Positions 8,925 through 46,090 of a stretch of 64,000 bases of DNA are shown in pieces (positions within the stretch are counted from its first letter, which is position 1; the number at the start of each line of letters is the position of its first letter). Location: positions 1 through 64,000 of IMG/VR virus record IMGVR_UViG_3300030117_003229; one strand, written 5' to 3'. Both the position numbers and the translations under genes were made by a program. This stretch comes from an uncultured virus (IMG/VR IMGVR_UViG_3300030117_003229). Lineage: Duplodnaviria > Heunggongvirae > Uroviricota > Caudoviricetes. The notes under the pieces are model-generated. The model saw only the letters and a list, made by a program, of their open reading frames with translations, did not search any database and had not been told where the DNA came from.

Positions 8925-9848
8925 TTAAAAGAAATCGATGACACCAGCGTGTCGGTTTTTCATTGGAAACAAATTAGTCAGTAAAAATCTAAGTGCATCG
9001 CAGTGATGGTCAAACTTACCATCCTTTTTAGGTTCGTGGCGCAGCGTTTGATCTTCACGATGCTCTGGATAATGATAATTTTCGTATGATTCGATACTTG
9101 CCTTACACTTAGGATGGATAAAAAAGTGAGGGTCACCATTGGCATCCTCAAACCACCTGCGTACATGCGATACTCCAGACACTACATTTCTGGTTACTGC
9201 ATCGCGTTTTATCTTGACGTTTAGACCATGTTGCTTAAAAACGGCTATATCACTAATTCCTGACTGCAAATTTGTGCCAGATCCTGCTGGATCGCCCCAT
9301 ATACCAGTAAATTCGTAGCCAAGTGAGTTAATTTTACGTGCAAACTCCTCTGTACGCGTGTTTTGCAGGTTGACTTCGTCAATTTGGTGTATTTCAGCGA
9401 AGTTTTTCTCACGCTTATGCAACTGCACGATATTCGCTGCGCTGTGACGATAGCCAAAATCTATACCCATATATACAGGCTTCGATGGATCGTAGGTTAC
9501 ATCCTCGCGTATCTGCTTTTCTCTATCTAGTGGATACACCTTGCCCTGGTATGACTGAAACTCGCAAAGAAACTCCTGCCTATAGGTTTCTTTTGTGAGT
9601 GTGCGTTTCAGTTCTTCTACGTCATCTTTAAAATATGGGGATAGCGTAGATGGAAATCGCCATGATTCCCAGTCAGGAAACTCAGGATTCTTGCCAAAAT
9701 CTTTGTAGAGCTTGTGCAGGTAGTTGAATCCACGCGGTGTACTAATAAATAAACACCAACCTTGTCGATCTGCTAGTGTAGGTCTTAAATACATCTCGTA
9801 TGTGTTACGTGGGATAAGTGCTGCTTCATCTATTATTAAATAATCAAT
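8925..9848 (-). CDS. terL: Terminase large subunit, C-terminal part (Walker B plus nuclease)
   Basis: Frame open upstream of the annotated ATG: IDYLIIDEAA (Walker B), ISTPRG, GIDFG, DHHCDALR. Confidence 0.9.
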   Translation of the reverse strand: MDYLIIDEAALIPRNTYEMYLRPTLADRQGWCLFISTPRGFNYLHKLYKDFGKNPEFPDWESWRFPSTLSPYFKDDVEELKRTLTKETYRQEFLCEFQSYQGKVYPLDREKQIREDVTYDPSKPVYMGIDFGYRHSAANIVQLHKREKNFAEIHQIDEVNLQNTRTEEFARKINSLGYEFTGIWGDPAGSGTNLQSGISDIAVFKQHGLNVKIKRDAVTRNVVSGVSHVRRWFEDANGDPHFFIHPKCKASIESYENYHYPEHREDQTLRHEPKKDGKFDHHCDALRFLLTNLFPMKNRHAGVIDFF

Positions 9849-9877
9849 GCCTAAAAATACCGACCTTTCGGTCAGCC
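9849..9877 (-). other. Putative translational bypass element in terL (GGC take-off, UGA, GAAA hairpin, GGC landing)
   Basis: Minus strand GGC TGACCGAAAGGTCGGTATTTTTA GGC ATT GAT; removing 26 nt restores SLIGDG-IDYLIIDE. Confidence 0.75.
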
Positions 9878-10261
9878 ATCTCCTATCAAACTATCGACTG
9901 CGTCAGCCGATTTTACAACTATTTCACTATTTAAGCCTGCGAGCTTCATATAGTATAAATCGCCAGAAATCTCTTTCTTGCTTTCTAATGGCAGTTTTAG
10001 TTCTGTCATTACAATACGCTTTACCTCACGTGCAATCTTATTTGCCAGTGAGTAGTTTGGTCCTACAATCCAACCACGTGTGTTGGGTGTGAGCAGCCAA
10101 GGCATGATCTCATGCGCTGCCATGTAGGATTTCCCACTGCGGCGGCCCATTAAACAGACGCGATACCTAGCTTTACTGTTATGAACGGCCAACTGCTGTG
10201 GAGTCGGTTGGTATCCCAAAATCCTCCATAGCTTTTGCTTGTTCAGTATTGACTTTATCAA
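9872..10261 (-). CDS. terL: Terminase large subunit, N-terminal part (Walker A)
   Basis: PTPQQ, GRRSGKS Walker A, WIVGPNY; ends SLIGDG-stop. Confidence 0.9.
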   Translation of the reverse strand: MIKSILNKQKLWRILGYQPTPQQLAVHNSKARYRVCLMGRRSGKSYMAAHEIMPWLLTPNTRGWIVGPNYSLANKIAREVKRIVMTELKLPLESKKEISGDLYYMKLAGLNSEIVVKSADAVDSLIGDG

Positions 10262-10586
10262 TCGGATTATCCTCGAAACCGCACTCTTTTAGCACTGTTT
10301 CTAAATTACCTGTCATGTCTACAGCAGTTTTATCTGTCATGCCAAGATAATTCTTGGCCATGAAGATTTGCATAGCAATTGAGTTGTTTTCCATTGCGCT
10401 AACCCACATGGATCTGCGCAGTTTGAACTTCATCTCTTCTTTACCAGCTTCTACCTTCGCTTTGAAGTGTTTGCGTATTGTACCTTCGGACACTTCAAAG
10501 TATTTGCCGATTTCGATGTAGTTGCAGCCAAAACTAGCAAGCATTTTTACCTTTTCAGGATCTATTTTCTTTGTTTTCTTATCCAT
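10179..10586 (-). CDS. terS: Terminase small subunit
   Basis: N-terminal HTH, MQIFMAKNYLGM motif, upstream of terL. Confidence 0.75.
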   Translation of the reverse strand: MDKKTKKIDPEKVKMLASFGCNYIEIGKYFEVSEGTIRKHFKAKVEAGKEEMKFKLRRSMWVSAMENNSIAMQIFMAKNYLGMTDKTAVDMTGNLETVLKECGFEDNPIDKVNTEQAKAMEDFGIPTDSTAVGRS

Positions 10587-10911
10587 CTTCCTTATTAGAG
10601 CTTTCGATGACAGCTTTTATTTTAATTAACGTCCTGCGCCAGTATTCTTTGACTGAGGACTCGGTTATCTCCATTTCCTGCGCAATATCTACAAATGCAT
10701 GGCCACGAATACGTTCTTTAAACACTCGTAACTCCTGTGGAGACATACGATCGTAGAACTGGTGCGCTGCGAGTTGCAGGTGGCGCAGGGATGGTTCGAT
10801 CAAACCACTTCGGAAAACTAGAATCATTGTGTGGTAGCGATCTGCGCGGTCGATAGCATGAAGCCACTTGTCAGTGTTGTCATCTGTTAGGTTACTCCAG
10901 ACTTCTTCCAT
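10579..10911 (-). CDS. Sigma-70 region 4-like HTH regulator (possible late activator)
   Basis: MSPQELRVF...FVDIAQEMEITESSVKEY. Confidence 0.65.
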   Translation of the reverse strand: MEEVWSNLTDDNTDKWLHAIDRADRYHTMILVFRSGLIEPSLRHLQLAAHQFYDRMSPQELRVFKERIRGHAFVDIAQEMEITESSVKEYWRRTLIKIKAVIESSNKEDG

Positions 10912-11009
10912 AGTAGAATTTACGCAGGGGTGTTGACAAAAACGAAGAGGAAAATTTTAAGACGCGGTAAGTGGCATTTTGGGTGGTTTGCCTTGGTGTA
11001 TCCGATCCT

Positions 11010-11037
11010 ATTATACATAATATATATTATGCGCAAT
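11010..11037 (-). other. dif-like XerC/XerD site 1
   Basis: Minus strand ATTGCGCATAA-TATATA-TTATGTATAAT vs E. coli dif GGTGCGCATAA-TGTATA-TTATGTTAAAT. Confidence 0.85.
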
Positions 11038-11156
11038 ACTAAGTGTTGATATTGTTAGACTTAGCATTTTACAATTTATTAGTTTGACTATTTGACATTG
11101 TGCGCCGCTTTTCTTTTTGTTTTTGCTTTGACTCAATATTTTTATTTAAGTAAGTG

Positions 11157-11185
11157 TTGACACATTATATATATATAGCTATATT
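11157..11185 (+). promoter_or_regulatory. Sigma-70 promoter of the early cassette
   Basis: TTGACA-17 nt-TATATT. Confidence 0.8.
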
Positions 11186-11240
11186 TTAGCGCGGAATGAG
11201 AGCCGCAAGAGAGTAATTAAAACAAAAGAGAGAGGTTAAA

Positions 11241-11528
11241 ATGGATCGATTAAGAGCATTTAAAATCAAACTATTACCAGCAACTAACACCAAAGGAACA
11301 CGTATTAAAATAATTGATACGTTTTTTAATGGCCGCACTAAAGATAAAGCAACCGCCGTTGTTTTATCATATGATTATCAATATAATCATTTGTTAGATC
11401 AAGCAATTAATCACTTAAAAAAAGTATGTAATATAAATATAGTTTCATGTTCATATAATACTAAAGATAATGCTTTTATATTATTAACAAACGATTTTGA
11501 AACTGAATTAACAAAAGAGAGAGGTTAA
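11241..11528 (+). CDS. Early hypothetical protein
   Basis: AAAGAGAGAGG RBS; PATNTKGTRIK motif typical of small phage early proteins. Confidence 0.65.
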   Translation: MDRLRAFKIKLLPATNTKGTRIKIIDTFFNGRTKDKATAVVLSYDYQYNHLLDQAINHLKKVCNINIVSCSYNTKDNAFILLTNDFETELTKERG

Positions 11529-11531
11529 AAA

Positions 11532-11717
11532 ATGAGTGATGATTTAATTATAGCGGTTAAACACTATTTAAAAGAAGTTGATAGACAAAGTCCAATTGTG
11601 CCAACTTCACATAACACACTAATTAAACTAGTGAGAATTTTTGGCGCAAAAGACATACGCGCTGAAATTAACAGGCAACTATATAAAGAGAAAAGAGAGA
11701 GGTTAAACAATGAGTAA
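11532..11717 (+). CDS. Early hypothetical protein
   Basis: Same RBS repeat; part of the operon. Confidence 0.55.
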   Translation: MSDDLIIAVKHYLKEVDRQSPIVPTSHNTLIKLVRIFGAKDIRAEINRQLYKEKRERLNNE

Positions 11718-12291
11718 TTACTTAACAAACACAAACAGCAAAATAAAAAAGACCGCTAAATTAAACGGCGTGCGCTTGTATGAGTTTAATTTGCCAGCGG
11801 TTTCATGCTGTCCATTTGCGGATATATGCAAGGAATATTGTTACGCTGATAAAGGCACGTTTAAATATCCTAATGTACAGGCAAAATATAATTCTAATTA
11901 TGAATTAACAAAAAACACTGAATTATTTATTGAATCAATCCAAAGTGAGTTAATAGAAAAGCGTGTTGAGTTTGTGCGCATCCATTCGAGCGGCGATTTT
12001 TACAGCCTTAAATATTTGCGTTCCTGGTTAACCATTGCAAAAAATAATCCTAATATTATTTTTTATGGATATACCAAAAGCGTACCATTTTTTAAATCTG
12101 TAACACCGCCGCCAAATTTTATCTTTTGTTTTTCTACTGGTGGGAAAATGGACCACCTAATAAAAGACACTGATAAACGCGCGGTAATATTTGATACTAA
12201 AGAGGATCTAAAAAAAGCGCGGTATATTGATTGCAGCGTAAATGATATGAAAATGATCGCAACGAATAAAATAGGACTTATTAAGCACTAA
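11710..12291 (+). CDS. Phage Gp88-like Cys-rich (radical SAM-related) protein
   Basis: FNLPA..CP....C..YCYA, RIHSSGDF, YGYTKS motifs. Confidence 0.7.
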   Translation: MSNYLTNTNSKIKKTAKLNGVRLYEFNLPAVSCCPFADICKEYCYADKGTFKYPNVQAKYNSNYELTKNTELFIESIQSELIEKRVEFVRIHSSGDFYSLKYLRSWLTIAKNNPNIIFYGYTKSVPFFKSVTPPPNFIFCFSTGGKMDHLIKDTDKRAVIFDTKEDLKKARYIDCSVNDMKMIATNKIGLIKH

Positions 12292-12341
12292 CTGAAGAAG
12301 GCAGAAGGCCAGAAACAGCGCATTTTTTGCGCTGTCTTAGT
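12287..12341 (+). ncRNA. Hammerhead ribozyme type I (variant, A-A at base of stem II), predicted cleavage after 12336
   Basis: Stem I ACTAA/TTAGT, CTGAAGA, stem II GGC/GCC, GAAA, stem III CAGCGCA/TGCGCTG, GUC. Confidence 0.8.
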
Positions 12342-12364
12342 CAAACAAATAAAAAGGAAAAACA

Positions 12365-12640
12365 ATGTATAACACTTTTAAAAACTGGTTAAATGAAAAT
12401 ACTCAACTTTCAAATAAATCAATTAGTAATTACGGCGGCGCGTTAAATAAAATTACACGCGATTTAATTACTGAAAAAATGATCGTTGAAAGTTTAGAAG
12501 AAATTAAAACAGCGGACCAAGTAAAAGAAACTAAAAAGAAATATTTCGCGATTGATAAATATAAAAAGCAAGATCATAAAGCTAAAAATATGTATCATGC
12601 TGGATTCAATAAATATATACTTTTTAGAGAATCTAATTAA
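12365..12640 (+). CDS. Hypothetical helical protein
   Basis: AAGGA RBS; FKNWL...LS..S..NY..AL...NMY motif. Confidence 0.6.
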   Translation: MYNTFKNWLNENTQLSNKSISNYGGALNKITRDLITEKMIVESLEEIKTADQVKETKKKYFAIDKYKKQDHKAKNMYHAGFNKYILFRESN

Positions 12641-12666
12641 TTAAACAAAAAAAGAGAGTAATAACA

Positions 12667-12954
12667 ATGATAAAACCAAAAACAAAAGCACAAAAAAAAC
12701 AAGATCAAACTAAACTAGACCAAGCCGCGCATAAATGCGCTAAAGCAATAAATAGCTTTGTTACTGAGTTATATGAAGGTGAATTCAGGCTTGATTGGAT
12801 TTACTTTAGCACAATTAATAAAATGCAGGAATCCGATAATAAATATCAATACGCTAAAAAAACTCAGAAGGAAGAATTTACATTTACTAGCTATGAAGAA
12901 GATAAGGATCATAAAGAATGGAATAATTCAACGCATATAGATAAATATAAATAA
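12667..12954 (+). CDS. Early hypothetical protein
   Basis: AAGAGAG RBS; ORF ends just before hammerhead 2. Confidence 0.6.
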   Translation: MIKPKTKAQKKQDQTKLDQAAHKCAKAINSFVTELYEGEFRLDWIYFSTINKMQESDNKYQYAKKTQKEEFTFTSYEEDKDHKEWNNSTHIDKYK

Positions 12955-12955
12955 A

Positions 12956-13027
12956 TCCATACTGAAGAGCGCGATTAATTACCGCGCGAAATATCGCCGT
13001 TTTTGCGGCGGTATCTATGGAAATTAA
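12956..13027 (+). ncRNA. Hammerhead ribozyme type I (canonical core), predicted cleavage after 13015
   Basis: Stem I TCCATA/TATGGA, CTGAAGA, stem II GCGCG/CGCGC, GAAA, stem III TATCGCCG/CGGCGGTA, AUC; loop II TTAATT can pair with AATTAA at 13022-13027. Confidence 0.92.
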
Positions 13028-13042
13028 AAAAGAGGTTTAAAC

Positions 13043-13129
13043 ATGCTTAAAACACTCGAAAAAATAGCGCATATATACTTATCAATATGCGTTTTAGTAT
13101 GGATATTACAACTATGTTTGAGTGGTTAA
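13043..13129 (+). CDS. Tiny hydrophobic peptide (28 aa)
   Basis: AAGAGG RBS; MLKTLEKIAHIYLSICVLVWILQLCLSG. Confidence 0.45.
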   Translation: MLKTLEKIAHIYLSICVLVWILQLCLSG

Positions 13130-13192
13130 TATGGTTTATTTTGGCGTTGATTTTGTATTTTAGCGCATCGGAATAAATACACAACACTAAAC

Positions 13193-13226
13193 AAAAAAAG
13201 CCGCGTTTTAAACGCGGTTTTTTTTT
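13193..13226. terminator. Bidirectional rho-independent terminator
   Basis: A7-GCCGCGTTTTAAACGCGG-T9 between convergent operons. Confidence 0.85.
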
Positions 13227-13366
13227 ACCTATACATACCAAGCCGCACAAATAAAACGCGCGTTTTTGCGCAAATTAAACACTAAAAATAAAAGATCTTT
13301 TGATCATTGCAGCCGTTTCAAATATTAGTTTGAATTCTACTTGTGTTTTTTCGTGTTTTAAATCCT

Positions 13367-13394
13367 ATTATACATAATCTTTTTTATGCACATA
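13367..13394 (-). other. dif-like XerC/XerD site 2 (direct repeat of site 1)
   Basis: Minus strand TATGTGCATAA-AAAAGA-TTATGTATAAT; ATCCTATTATACATAAT identical to site 1. Confidence 0.75.
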
Positions 13395-13721: not shown

Positions 13722-13845
13722 GAATATGAAGACTATGAAGAATATGAAGACTTTCTCTCTCTCTCTTCTCGATAAACCAAATCACGCAAAGTCTTTTTTT
13801 ATTTTGCCAAAAGACTTTCAAAGTCTTCAAAGTCTTCAAAGTCTT
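13722..13845. repeat. Iteron-like repeats, putative replication origin
   Basis: GAATATGAAGACT x2 and CAAAGTCTT x4 (three in tandem); AAGACT core in both orientations, next to the primase-helicase gene. Confidence 0.6.
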
Positions 13846-13863: not shown

Positions 13864-15714
13864 TTAATCAAGAAAATCATCTAATTCAGTAGTTACTTTA
13901 CAGTAATGACCATGATCAAGTTTACGAATTAAGCCTTGATTTTCCATTCTTGAAAGCCAATTATATAAAGCTGTTTTACTGCTCAACTTCATCACACTTT
14001 CCAGCGCAACAGCAAACGCAGAGGTACTAAAATTATGACCATCTGTCATAACCGCAGCAAGCACGCGTTCTTCATTCGACTCTTTCGGATCGCTATACCA
14101 ATACATCTCATTTTTAGGAAGTGGCTTCATATATTTAAAATACAATTCACGCCGATCTTCTTCATCAATATTAATCATCTTAATACCAACTGGTACATTA
14201 TGCAACTCGTTATGACTGCGCACCTTCGTTATCTTCATTACCTTTAATCCAGGAACACGCCTAGCATCGGCCATTTGGACCAAACAATCCAAGAAGTTAG
14301 AATACGCAGATCCACCTAATAGCTGCGATACATCGAGTGGAGTCATCTCACCGATCTTCTTATGATGCGACACCAACACAATAGCAACCTTATGTCTTTT
14401 CTTAATATTCACGATCTTACGCAGCAATTCCATTATATCTGAGTTCTTAGACATCGACAACTGCGTACTGGTATACAAGTTATCCACCACCAGCACATCA
14501 TATTCTTCATGCACTAAATTAGCATCAATTATATCCCATTTATCCTGAAACAGATTCGACTGCCCATCACCAGTAAAGCGCAGGTTCTTATCCAAATTCT
14601 CTGACTCAATCGGATATTGATCCATCAACGGCTTACCTACATTCTTAATTAAGCCACTAAAACTCTCATCCTTCAACTCAAACTGCACATGCAACACACG
14701 CTGCGCAGTAGGAATCCGATAGTTCATAAACGGCACACCCATAGCAAGGCACATCGACAACTGCAAACTAAACACCGACTTACCCACATTCGTACCACCT
14801 GCGATACCCATAATGTCACCATCATAAAACAACGACTCAATGATCGGTCTAGGCAACTGGTTGAATGTGGTCCGAAACTGCGACATACTAAACGACTGCA
14901 TACCACCCAGATCCACCGCACTTTCACCATACCTATTGCACAAACTAAGCAGGTTTTCCAGCGTATTACCATCACTAAACCAGTCAGTTATATCATAGCC
15001 TAAAGGTTTATTTTTCCAATCAACGGCATACAACTCCAATTCCTTAGAAAACAGCCGTTTTGCTACCTTTTTCGAGCCTTCTATACCTTTTTCATCGTTA
15101 TCGTATATGATATATAGTTTATTATATCCTGTAGGCAAGGTTAATTCAGCAGGCAGCGCACCTGCACCAGACGTAAACGTAATCGCAGGTGCGCCTTGGC
15201 AGTATGCGGTGACTACATCTTTTTCACCTTCGCACAATATAAGATAGTTTTTGAGAAGTTGCGGAGTCCCAAACATCTTACACTGCGCATCACCGAACTG
15301 CTTTCCTTTATGATGCTTTACATGATTATCATTGATTTGAAATACTAACTGTGGCTTACCATCATCATTCTTTCGCACACCTACAGGCATTTTAAGACAT
15401 TGATCATTCCAAGGCAAGTCCATAGCCTTTACAAATTTTTCCCATCCATTTATAAATGCATTCCGCGCATCTGCGTAGCCACCTTTGTCGACAGATACAA
15501 CAGCCTTAGTATTACTTAATACGTATTCTTCTCTCTTTTGTATTTTCTCATCTTCATCAAATTGCCATGTTTTTTGACACTTATGGCAATGAGCATAATC
15601 CTCATTAATAGTTACTGTACCTTGAGGACGATTAGAGCCTAGATCACACTCAGGACACCAAGCTCTGTTACCATTACGAGATATGCGAGTAAATACATCC
15701 TGTGGGCGAATCAC
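13864..15714 (-). CDS. Primase-helicase (Zn finger + TOPRIM + RepA/AAA_25 helicase)
   Basis: CPEC...CHKC; LCEGEKD...YDND; GGTNVGKS; LVVD; VSHHKK. Confidence 0.85.
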   Translation of the reverse strand: MIRPQDVFTRISRNGNRAWCPECDLGSNRPQGTVTINEDYAHCHKCQKTWQFDEDEKIQKREEYVLSNTKAVVSVDKGGYADARNAFINGWEKFVKAMDLPWNDQCLKMPVGVRKNDDGKPQLVFQINDNHVKHHKGKQFGDAQCKMFGTPQLLKNYLILCEGEKDVVTAYCQGAPAITFTSGAGALPAELTLPTGYNKLYIIYDNDEKGIEGSKKVAKRLFSKELELYAVDWKNKPLGYDITDWFSDGNTLENLLSLCNRYGESAVDLGGMQSFSMSQFRTTFNQLPRPIIESLFYDGDIMGIAGGTNVGKSVFSLQLSMCLAMGVPFMNYRIPTAQRVLHVQFELKDESFSGLIKNVGKPLMDQYPIESENLDKNLRFTGDGQSNLFQDKWDIIDANLVHEEYDVLVVDNLYTSTQLSMSKNSDIMELLRKIVNIKKRHKVAIVLVSHHKKIGEMTPLDVSQLLGGSAYSNFLDCLVQMADARRVPGLKVMKITKVRSHNELHNVPVGIKMINIDEEDRRELYFKYMKPLPKNEMYWYSDPKESNEERVLAAVMTDGHNFSTSAFAVALESVMKLSSKTALYNWLSRMENQGLIRKLDHGHYCKVTTELDDFLD

Positions 15715-16466: not shown

Positions 16467-16670
16467 TCATTTTTCTACCTCATCATAAATTTCTAACAGC
16501 ATTTCTTCTATTTTTTCTGATCTTTCTTTCATAACTTTTTCCAAGTGCTTAAACTTTTGATTATTAAACCAGCGCATCAAATAATGATATATAATCAATA
16601 ACACTGCGATGTATACTAAGGTAAATACATCAAATCCATTCTCAGATAATGATTGTAGCCAAAAACTCAT
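16467..16670 (-). CDS. Small membrane protein
   Basis: One TM segment followed by a coiled-coil; GGAGG RBS. Confidence 0.5.
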   Translation of the reverse strand: MSFWLQSLSENGFDVFTLVYIAVLLIIYHYLMRWFNNQKFKHLEKVMKERSEKIEEMLLEIYDEVEK

Positions 16671-17419
16671 AAGACCTCCATTTGTTTGATTTTATAAAAA
16701 ATATAATAAGCTATCTGCGGCACTATTGCGTTTCCGAGTCCTTTAAGTCGGTCCATCCTATTGGAAATCCCATTAGCCACTCTACGAACTCTGGGTTCAG
16801 CGTTCCACCCACTTTGTTCACTGATTCTATTGCAAAGTCCAATCGATTCGTTGGATCGTTTGCTCTTTTGTGACCTGCGGACCAGCCTTTGTAATCGCTG
16901 GCCGTTGGCGTAGGCAACAATCCAGATTCTTTCTCTTTGATGCCAAGCTCCAACTTGCTTTGCAGAAATAATTTGCCATTCAGCATCATAGCCGATTTTG
17001 GCAAGATCGTTAATAATTCGTGTTCCGCCCCTAATAGCGAGCATTGGAACGTTCTCAATGATTGCAAATCTTGGTCGTACTTCGCTAATGACTCTATGCA
17101 TTTCTGACCAAAGACCAGACCTCTCTCCTTCAATACCTTCTCCTCTTCCTACCTGAGATATATCCTGGCATGGAAAGCCACCAGTAATTATATCTACATT
17201 ATTAAATGAAAACCCACTAAGTGTTTTAATATCATTGTATACTGTTGTATCTGGAAAATTTTTCTTTAATACCTTCCTGCAATATTGATCAATCTCACAA
17301 AATCCAACAATATCTAACTTATCTTTCCAAACCCACTGCGCAGCAAGACTGAATCCACCTATACCACTAAATAGGTCTAAAAGTTTCACACCTGACATGG
17401 CTGCCCATACCAAAGCCAA
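16667..17419 (-). CDS. dcm: C5-cytosine DNA methyltransferase, alpha subunit
   Basis: DLFSGIGG (I), GGFPCQD (IV), ENV (VI), HQRER (VIII), LGNAIVP (X); no motif IX; true start probably slightly downstream. Confidence 0.9.
   Translation of the reverse strand: MALVWAAMSGVKLLDLFSGIGGFSLAAQWVWKDKLDIVGFCEIDQYCRKVLKKNFPDTTVYNDIKTLSGFSFNNVDIITGGFPCQDISQVGRGEGIEGERSGLWSEMHRVISEVRPRFAIIENVPMLAIRGGTRIINDLAKIGYDAEWQIISAKQVGAWHQRERIWIVAYANGQRLQRLVRRSQKSKRSNESIGLCNRISEQSGWNAEPRVRRVANGISNRMDRLKGLGNAIVPQIAYYIFYKIKQMEVL
16723..17133 (-). CDS. C5 methyltransferase beta subunit nested in an alternative frame (TRD + motif IX)
   Basis: LLPTPTASD...LNPEFVEWLMGFPIGWT; start uncertain. Confidence 0.75.
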   Translation of the reverse strand: MKERGLVFGQKCIESLAKYDQDLQSLRTFQCSLLGAEHELLTILPKSAMMLNGKLFLQSKLELGIKEKESGLLPTPTASDYKGWSAGHKRANDPTNRLDFAIESVNKVGGTLNPEFVEWLMGFPIGWTDLKDSETQ

Positions 17420-39246: not shown

Positions 39247-39723
39247 TTACACATTTAAATCAATTATAATATCTTTTTTACTAAACTTTACTATCCTGTC
39301 ATCTATAATCTTTTCAAAATATTCTTTTACAAAGTTTTCATTTTTATCATTAAGACCATAAACATTTCTACCATTTTTGGCATTGCCTTCAAACTTTAAT
39401 CCATCCCTATAATTTAACTCTACACTATTAGAAGTCGCTCTTTGTGCCTTTAATGAGTTAAGCATTACCCCTGTAAGCCTTAGATTGGGAGGTGATACTT
39501 GTCTGCTTTTAGAAATACCTTTTTTTGTTTTTATTCCTTTTACTTTTTTAAGAGCATAATTAATAGTGTATCTTGGAAAGTCTTTTACTGTACCATCACC
39601 ATCCTGACTTATCCCCTTTTTAGTATCTTCAAGTATTCTTGTTACTAGCTTACCACCTAGTATTAACCAGTCTTTTGCTTTTTGTTTTGCTATATCATCT
39701 GCTTTCATTACTTTACTTCCCAA
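39247..39723 (-). CDS. Virion morphogenesis / neck protein
   Basis: PNLRLTGVMLNSL. Confidence 0.6.
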   Translation of the reverse strand: MGSKVMKADDIAKQKAKDWLILGGKLVTRILEDTKKGISQDGDGTVKDFPRYTINYALKKVKGIKTKKGISKSRQVSPPNLRLTGVMLNSLKAQRATSNSVELNYRDGLKFEGNAKNGRNVYGLNDKNENFVKEYFEKIIDDRIVKFSKKDIIIDLNV

Positions 39724-45238: not shown

Positions 45239-46090
45239 TTAATATTTCTTATATCTTTCTGATAGTATCTTTGGTACTGCATTTACCCATTTGATACTGT
45301 GATGTATTCTTTTATGATTTGCATTTAAAACTTTTATTTTAATTGAACTGGGTGAGCATAAAACTGAATAAAAACTTTTTACATAAGTTCCATAATTAAG
45401 ATATACGGTTGTCATCCCTTCTTTTGTTTTCTGAGTTTGCTTTTGAACCAATGATGCTAAGTGAGTAGTAAAAAACAAATGTCCTATACTTCCTAAATAA
45501 ACATAAGTTGTTACATCTTCATTTATTTTACCTAAAAAATTAAAAGGTTTATCTGTAGAACATACAAAGCTGTTCATTGCTTTTCTTTTTAGACCTCCTT
45601 TTATTGCAAAAACATTTTCTGCACCTCCAATAAAATCCCCACCTTGTGCTAATGCTAAAGATGTTGTAGGTGTATTTGATACAAAGTTTACCATACTATT
45701 AAATATGTGATCTAAATTTTTAACTGATTCAACAGCTAACTTATTACCTTTGATTGTTCTATACTCAAAAGCTCTATAGTCATCATCTAACTGTATAAAA
45801 TATTTATATCCTAGTTTTTTAGCAATGTAAAAACAGTAATTTCTTGCATAGACTACTGTATTTGTATTTTTAAAATTATCAAAAGTATCAAATGTTTTTG
45901 AAATAGTATTTTTATTAAAAACTAAAACATTATTAAAGTTTTTTTTATATTTATTTAATGTTTTATCTTCATCATCAACTATTAAAAATATTTTTCCAGT
46001 ATATCCTGAATTTTTTAATGTTTTTATTGTTAAAACATAATCAGGTCTGCCACTAGTAAGAATAAATACACAATAATTATTCTTCACCAT
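45239..46090 (-). CDS. TET-associated / GREB1-like glycosyltransferase (GT-A fold)
   Basis: GRPD..LT...YTG...IVDDED, YARN, QLDDDY, RKAMNSF, INEDV, GTYVKSFYSV. Confidence 0.75.
   Translation of the reverse strand: MVKNNYCVFILTSGRPDYVLTIKTLKNSGYTGKIFLIVDDEDKTLNKYKKNFNNVLVFNKNTISKTFDTFDNFKNTNTVVYARNYCFYIAKKLGYKYFIQLDDDYRAFEYRTIKGNKLAVESVKNLDHIFNSMVNFVSNTPTTSLALAQGGDFIGGAENVFAIKGGLKRKAMNSFVCSTDKPFNFLGKINEDVTTYVYLGSIGHLFFTTHLASLVQKQTQKTKEGMTTVYLNYGTYVKSFYSVLCSPSSIKIKVLNANHKRIHHSIKWVNAVPKILSERYKKY

Follow-up and report, generated by a model that had tools for sequence, protein, structure and literature searches.

Two type I hammerhead ribozymes, HH1 and HH2, are confirmed by sequence and fold in the early operon of an uncultured phage, and we consider it probable that they act as independent, cis-acting modules which would cut the early polycistron into linear mRNAs with 5'-OH ends. 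Each such module would combine a ribozyme with a short A-rich leader and a ribosome-binding site (RBS), and would be portable within the gene-variable early operon of this ~33-kb phage.

The window, that is the whole stretch of DNA analyzed, spans bases 1-64000 of a virus record 64,902 nt in length. Nearly all genes of the record lie on the minus strand. An inverted plus-strand island of ~2 kb is placed between the small-terminase-like and HTH genes (10179-10911) and a primase-helicase gene (13864-15714), and holds a promoter, seven small ORFs, including a GP88-family gene, and a terminator-like hairpin. Because it combines a host-type promoter with small, variable genes, we infer that this island is an early operon, with the following features:

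11157..11185, plus strand: sigma-70-type promoter of the inverted early operon, with 11 of 12 consensus matches, the best in the region
11191..11206, plus strand: 4-bp hairpin at the predicted transcript 5' end, retained through compensatory changes in 10 of the 11 relatives examined
11241..11528, plus strand: ORF1, 95 aa, no family above cut-off, differing among relatives
11532..11717, plus strand: ORF2, 61 aa, no assigned function, differing among relatives
11710..12291, plus strand: GP88-family gene (PF17338), 193 aa, Pfam E 2.8e-38, with 25 related loci
12287..12341, plus strand: HH1, type I hammerhead by descriptor match, predicted cut 12336/12337
12337..12364, plus strand: A-rich leader of 28 nt with an AAGGA-type Shine-Dalgarno sequence
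12365..12640, plus strand: ORF4, 91 aa, weak PF02899 resemblance, relatives of 94-129 aa
12667..12954, plus strand: ORF5, 95 aa, no family above cut-off
12956..13027, plus strand: HH2, canonical type I hammerhead with a loop-II/3'-tail pseudoknot, predicted cut 13015/13016
13043..13129, plus strand: ORF6, 28-aa hydrophobic peptide, starting 27 nt past the HH2 cut
13087..13176, plus strand: ORF7, short hydrophobic peptide of 20-29 aa depending on the choice of start
13193..13229, either strand: intrinsic-terminator-like hairpin with a U-run on both strands, fold z -5.8, closing the operon

The promoter occupies the same location in the 11 relatives examined. The hairpin behind it is missing from one of these (L022), carries GAGAG in its loop, and could be a 5' protection element or a protein-binding site. 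The hairpin closing the operon was recovered by a terminator scan in its minus-strand reading only. A ~25-nt gene-start motif with an AG-rich Shine-Dalgarno sequence is repeated before ORF1, ORF2 and GP88 (11216-11243, 11505-11532 and 11683-11710) and could give recombination a handle for exchanging genes; the leader behind HH1 is unlike this motif. The entire island is bracketed by a 31-nt direct repeat (87%; 11005-11035 and 13362-13392). Family searches with ORF4 and ORF5 returned nothing above cut-off, the match of ORF4 to the phage integrase N-terminal SAM-like domain (PF02899) reaching E 0.0065 and 17.2 bits, below the cut-off of 22.3, and a scan of viral contigs with ORF4 found no relative. 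As two homologs of 129 aa run on past its stop, ORF4 may be truncated.

Beyond the island, the record contains two tandem phage-like gene sets (1-33400 and 33400-64000), with duplicate terminases (25% identical), portal-like proteins (30%) and capsids (32%) as well as two tape-measure proteins; the island and its hammerheads are found in the first unit only. Since several related contigs measure 32-35 kb, the tandem arrangement looks like two related phages joined, possibly during assembly. Just downstream of the primase-helicase gene, the segment 13712-13862 presents three 9-nt repeats, a CT tract (13751-13770) and the same repeats inverted (fold z -6.1); it is conserved in 11 relatives, its arms co-vary, and it probably serves as an origin of replication with inverted iterons. 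The GAGAG-rich leaders of the island are complementary to the CT tract, but antisense control of these leaders is disfavored because L016 and L017 use a different leader and keep the same CT tract. The first large terminase gene (8925-10261, minus strand) is split into parts of 129 and 289 aa here and in L002-L005, L016 and L025, and is a single 398-aa ORF in L007, L008 and L022; the gap may hold an insertion or a frameshift. A TET-associated glycosyltransferase in the second unit (PF20691, E 7e-37; 45239-46090, minus strand) and a C5 methylase in the first (16667-17419) point to possible DNA modification. A search for the host returned 7 GTDB loci at 27-39% identity, and the best annotated phages stood at 32-34%, supporting no assignment.

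HH1 and HH2 are the sole matches to a hammerhead descriptor on both strands of the full record, and none of 30 block-dinucleotide shuffles gave a match at any of three settings. The preliminary description of this DNA had specified CUGAAGA and GAAA cores, three stems and GUC and AUC triplets, and the descriptor search and minimum free energy (MFE) folds found all of their coordinates to be correct. In HH1, a 5-bp stem I (12287-12291/12337-12341), of which the GP88 stop codon forms part, is followed by the CUGAAGA core (12292-12298), an A12299·A12311 mismatch at position 10.1-11.1, three base pairs with a 5-nt loop, GAAA (12312-12315), and a 7-bp stem III with the triplet GUC (12334-12336). HH2 comprises a 6-bp stem I (12956-12961/13016-13021), the core at 12962-12968, a 5-bp stem II, GAAA at 12988-12991, and a 9-bp stem III with AUC at 13013-13015, to which is added a predicted pseudoknot between loop II (12975-12980) and the 3' tail (13022-13027). 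Both MFE folds are three-way junctions with an open stem I and loop-closed stems II and III. The fold of HH2 has a z of -3.85 (0 of 200 shuffles as good) and that of HH1 a z of -2.17 (6 of 200), the centroid structure of the latter being without stem I. At 10.1-11.1, where R10.1-Y11.1 is expected of hammerheads, HH2 has G-C and HH1 has A·A. The proposal that the motifs start at or near stop codons and cut about 28 nt before start codons also stands: HH2 starts 1 nt past the ORF5 stop, and the predicted cuts lie 28 nt (HH1; ATG 12365) and 27 nt (HH2; ATG 13043) before the next start, a double cut freeing a piece of 679 nt. A second locus, L192, holds both motifs unaltered, and wherever they match, its GP88, ORF4 and ORF5 are 100% identical, which shows that the arrangement is no error of this record.

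An Infernal search with Rfam models, which the preliminary description had put forward as a check, recovered this assignment only in part. At gathering score there was no match in the window or in 20 related loci; at E<=10, HH2 scored 33.8 bits against RAGATH-1-hammerhead (cut-off 56.3) and HH1 fitted no hammerhead model. With this best Rfam model for HH2 (RF03152), the core, stem I and stem III align, whereas stem II is left unaligned and the upstream hairpin is weak; three relatives of HH2 score 36-40 bits against it, likewise below 56.3. At E<=0.5, Rfam offered no other ribozyme class in 18 loci. Covariance models built from the relatives of HH1 and HH2 found no additional or degenerate copy in islands with HH2 only. 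A weak covariance-model match at 39341-39402 (minus strand, E 0.2) was rejected, its core being missing.

The conservation of HH2 was examined through a pattern scan, which drew in 37 viral loci, namely 22 of the HH2 type, 8 with other hammerheads and 7 failing the descriptor. In an alignment of 21 distinct sequences, 93.9% of cells are paired and two-sided changes occur in 11 of 26 pairs, these sequences being related, so that the changes are not independent events. None of 500 shuffles reached the observed paired share or covariation score, and slid controls were 25-49% paired; the count of further pair types was not above the shuffles (195 of 500). Among the pseudoknot pairs, one switches between GC (15 sequences) and AU (6), another takes the forms AU (16), GC (3) and GU (1), and two more are always UA. 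This covariation supports the pseudoknot as real, and with it the initial reading of HH2 as a canonical hammerhead with a loop II pseudoknot. Stem I is constant in the alignment and is neither supported nor contradicted by covariation. Loop contacts of this type are needed for fast hammerhead cleavage, as described in PMC3088659, and cleavage by HH2 is predicted to be probably fast.

HH1 is a different case. Its 3-bp stem II and A-A juxtaposition, which the preliminary description had noted, are present, but its departure from the family extends to three positions and was given too little weight. A generic type I scan, whose pattern prescribed the triplet along with three pairs of stem I and left 10.1-11.1, the start of loop II and 2.6-1.6 free, found at least 126 stretches; among the matches listed, 114 of 144 passed the structure test. 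Again among the matches listed, a 13-nt stem-loop II is present in 105 of 127 non-redundant phage type I motifs; within these 105, 10.1-11.1 is G-C in 100 and A·A in one, and the first loop II nucleotide is invariably U. The 2.6-1.6 pair is G-C in 119 of the 127 and C·C in none of those listed. HH1 has a 13-nt stem-loop II, yet combines A·A at 10.1-11.1 with an A opening the loop and C·C at 2.6-1.6. Position 1.7 is A in 106 of the 127 family motifs among the matches listed, which, together with the invariant loop II U, suggests a single U·A tertiary contact; in HH1 this loop U is absent and no tertiary contact was identified.

The manner in which HH1 arrived may account for one of these deviations. 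Relative to L001, L005, L006 and L007, it is a clean indel of ~55 nt that falls precisely on the stop codon of GP88, where a short motif common to both sides forms the join. The GP88 gene of the window is nearer in its middle to L001, which lacks HH1, and in its last 220 nt to L002, which has it. We infer that HH1 was grafted by recombination, with the final His codon of GP88 replacing the G of pair 2.6-1.6.

We expect that HH1 does cleave, and find it rather doubtful that it does so fast. Possible, if somewhat unlikely, is the reading that only HH2 cuts well and that HH1 is a slow or decaying graft, in which case the 679-nt piece would be rare and the operon mostly cut once. This is compatible with the modular reading as far as HH2 is concerned, and it draws on the three outlying positions of HH1, on a centroid fold without stem I, and on the earlier mutagenesis cited in PMC3088659, according to which U·U is more active than every other mismatch at 10.1-11.1. 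However, the core and GUC of HH1 are intact, and its stem III displays compensatory changes among 10 relatives (these were picked for having the mismatch, whose persistence there is no evidence). Moreover, an A or C faces A at 10.1-11.1 in 10 of 132 matches of a position-blind scan (among the matches listed), and four different versions of the island retain HH1 (window/L192, L002/L003, L200 and L205). A mostly open-access literature search yielded no rate for an A·A variant at 10.1-11.1; such a variant was not met in the text of PMC3088659, whose Dataset S1 could list one.

The wider set of loci indicates that HH1 and HH2 are not a conserved unit, but independent, swappable gene-start modules, since HH1 accompanies few HH2-type loci, the cargo varies and the enclosed genes occur without HH1. 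Among 25 GP88 loci, both motifs are present in 2 and HH2 alone in 6; another 6 carry one or two different hammerheads, and the remaining 11 carry no hammerhead (L004 and L025 among the latter end at GP88, and several loci are near-duplicates); with 11 of 25 lacking any hammerhead, hammerhead function appears dispensable in these islands. HH1 is found in just 2 of 22 HH2-type viral loci, these 2 being near-identical and every locus offering at least 1,450 nt upstream, and neither covariance models nor Rfam (the latter over 18 loci) revealed a substitute ribozyme in the loci examined. Scanning metagenomes for HH1-type motifs yielded 16 loci: HH2 lies downstream in 3, the HH1-type motif stands second behind a canonical motif in 5, and it is alone in the available sequence in 8, several of which are short contigs. 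Where HH1 and HH2 do co-occur, the cargo between them is just ORF5 (380 nt), a different gene (439 and 443 nt) or ORF4 together with ORF5 (679 nt). ORF4 is without HH1 in all three non-identical loci (L160, L164 and L168), and ORF5, which is frequently but not invariably immediately 5' of HH2, also occurs without HH1. HH1, ORF4, ORF5 and HH2 thus reassort among loci. The leader behind HH1 recurs behind it in L002, L200 and L205 and so travels with the ribozyme, and homologs of ORF6 follow HH2 in L002/L175, L167 and L171. Outside the core, HH1 and HH2 have little sequence in common, and no repeat family uniting them was found; within L014, and likewise within L015, identical ribozymes with near-identical leaders stand before different genes. 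The earlier proposal of double cleavage was therefore right as to the predicted length of the 679-nt RNA and its two ORFs, but not in making the ribozymes a functional pair dedicated to freeing it, as HH1 is missing from 20 of 22 HH2 loci and the cargo differs.

What is conserved, instead of the pair, is a geometry of stop, cut and start. Among the matches listed, the cut falls 15-45 nt ahead of a start codon in 83 of 93 non-redundant phage hammerheads, with a median of 26, as against 103 of 465 random positions within that distance. For 73 of the 93 (among the matches listed), the distance between the upstream stop and the core is in the range -4..12 nt, which is partly a matter of pattern design, and the closeness of stop and start is in part a product of compact phage intergenic spaces. 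One motif is present in 28 of 58 loci and two to seven in the other 30 (among the matches listed, overlapping loci being counted twice), and none of the 58 listed has motifs on both strands. Some loci (L042/L043, L047, L026 and L083) carry 4-7 type I hammerheads within 4 kb, mostly one per gene start; L042 and L047 lie below the Rfam cut-offs. With at least 126 stretches the family is abundant in viral contigs, and since none of the 20 loci tested reached the Rfam cut-off, it is under-annotated.

In the mechanism we favor, host RNA polymerase would produce a ~2-kb transcript from the promoter at 11157 to the terminator at 13193-13229, which, as its structure predicts, would cleave itself into up to three linear RNAs, carrying ORF1-ORF2-GP88, ORF4-ORF5 (679 nt) and ORF6-ORF7. 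Because a type I hammerhead is cut at its 3' edge, each upstream product would retain stems II and III and end in a 2',3'-cyclic phosphate, and each downstream product would open with a 5'-OH, a 27-28-nt leader and an intact RBS; the leader at 12337..12364 would be the 5'-OH end of the ORF4-ORF5 mRNA. The cuts would fix where the cistrons end and what chemistry those ends have, with no need of host or phage RNases, and a gene swapped into the island would thereby receive a standard 5' end. HH1, as the later graft at the GP88 stop codon, would probably be slower or partial. The host-independent processing of the polycistron suggested earlier is upheld to the extent that structure supports both motifs as predicted hammerheads in an early operon, and the 5'-OH and 2',3'-cyclic phosphate ends follow from that assignment.

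The fate of such ends would depend on the host. RNase E and RNase G prefer a 5'-monophosphate, and the products of T4 RegB, with 5'-OH and cyclic phosphate ends, require PNK for further cutting in E. coli, as described in PMC3014915; no PNK-like Pfam match was found among 60 proteins scanned, a set that left out most ORFs under 110 aa. Together, these points favor protection or insulation of the downstream message as the most likely net effect. Three other notions were set aside. Unmasking of the RBS by cleavage is not predicted, as accessibility goes from 0.74 to 0.77 at one site and from 0.56 to 0.54 at the other in pseudoknot-free folding, the pseudoknot tail of HH2 adjoining the Shine-Dalgarno sequence. 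The released 5' end can form 5-6 weak base pairs with loop II of HH2, which we judge to be chance, as islands that lack HH1 contain this loop as well. Finally, a single hammerhead acting on many substrates finds no substrate-only half-sites at up to 2 mismatches in 11150-13230 besides the two ribozymes themselves.

In an improbable alternative, cleavage would trigger or time decay: a host 5'-exonuclease able to act on 5'-OH ends would shorten the life of the downstream cistrons and limit toxic early products. The enzyme that degrades the downstream product of the glmS ribozyme is RNase J1. That system sets the precedent, since cleavage there is followed by degradation by cellular RNases (PMC6765202), and it would suit this alternative that the downstream leader is unstructured while the primary transcript opens with a conserved hairpin. 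However, T4 uses PNK for such decay in E. coli (PMC3014915) and the scanned proteins offered no PNK-like match, and a standard RBS at a fixed distance past each cut would suit expression better than destruction.

We give little credence to the view that the modules are DNA-level recombination handles or near-neutral hitchhikers whose cleavage has a small effect on fitness. Their patchy presence, the identical direct-repeat ribozymes of L014 and L015, the joining of the HH1 indel at a short shared motif and the switch in affinity of the GP88 3' end from L001 to L002 are all in keeping with it. But HH1 and HH2, sharing little beyond the core, are not a repeat pair here, and the preservation of structure, pseudoknot included, through compensatory change points to selection on the RNA fold.

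Least likely, in our estimate, is that double cleavage frees the 679-nt RNA for a host RtcB-type ligase to close into a nuclease-resistant, translatable circular mRNA of ORF4 and ORF5 with swappable cargo, which, if true, would make it a natural phage circular mRNA. RtcB accepts 5'-OH and cyclic-phosphate ends and is widespread in prokaryotes (10 of 14 control genomes), the piece has two complete ORFs with RBSs, and the circle would resist re-cutting because its joined ends, with 1 of 6 stem I pairs at the junction, do not rebuild stem I. It also speaks for circles that in other phages 26 of 43 adjacent hammerhead pairs, among the matches listed, do have fully matching ends, a count that the search pattern inflates. 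Against the circle, the non-matching ends here rule out ligation by the ribozyme itself, and no end-joining stem is apparent: complementarity reaches 6 bp at best, and the MFE fold leaves the first 38 nt single-stranded. RtcB is absent from the record (0 of 1), the 60 proteins scanned gave no RNA-ligase Pfam match, the pair is kept in only 2 of 22 loci, and islands with a single hammerhead cannot yield circles. Circular or spliced products of such clusters were sought and undetected according to PMC3088659, which gives this as 'data not shown'. The circularization first proposed for this locus is unsupported, and closure by a host ligase is improbable.

The purpose of bacterial and phage self-cleaving ribozymes is still to be settled (PMC6765202), and this locus is a compact test case for that question without answering it. 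Close relatives with no hammerhead, with HH2 only, or with HH1 and HH2 around the same or different genes constitute natural controls, which could show how a cut 27-28 nt before a start affects mRNA life and translation, and HH1 supplies a natural A·A variant at 10.1-11.1 for measurement.

Several known systems offer parallels. RNase III leaves 5'-phosphate and 3'-OH ends. In the early RNA of T7, as described in PMC4858673, this host enzyme cuts five sites to give mono- and dicistronic mRNAs, and we propose that here, too, an early transcript of the host polymerase is cut co-transcriptionally into such units; the agent in T7 is a protein enzyme acting on dsRNA stems, whereas here it would be an RNA catalyst leaving 5'-OH and cyclic-phosphate ends. 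T4 RegB is likewise phage-encoded, targets early intergenic regions and leaves the kind of ends predicted here, but it cuts inside the Shine-Dalgarno sequence, inactivating it, with PNK then enabling decay (PMC3014915); the ribozymes are predicted to leave the RBS intact by cutting upstream of it, and the protein scan turned up no PNK. As in RiboJ-type insulators, a self-cleaving motif before the RBS would give a uniform 5' end whatever lies upstream, although RiboJ is engineered with an added hairpin (PMC8942793) and the natural leaders here are unstructured and A-rich. In retrozymes and viroid-like circular RNAs, too, tandem hammerheads free a unit-length RNA (PMC4918200, PMC7761336, PMC6765202); theirs are repeated, matching and circularizing, unlike HH1 and HH2, which differ from one another, would release ends that do not match and do not persist together as a pair. 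Type I hammerheads also aid translation in fungal and plant RNA viruses (PMC13725137), a eukaryotic parallel distinct from the phage system considered here. The closest counterparts are the clustered hammerheads that flank variable genes in prophages, three clusters of which cut in vitro as predicted (PMC3088659). A mostly open-access literature search found no paper on this phage family, although Dataset S1 of Perreault et al. may list these motifs. The layout has been known in phages since 2011 and this locus is a further example: as in the clusters described by Perreault et al. (2011), two or more hammerheads lie on one strand in the intergenic gaps of a phage polycistron and the genes they flank are inconstant (cargo of 380, 439, 443 and 679 nt). 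To that description, it adds an uncultured phage in which both hammerheads are of type I and fall below the Rfam cut-offs, one of them seen as an indel, with cargo that reassorts among relatives.
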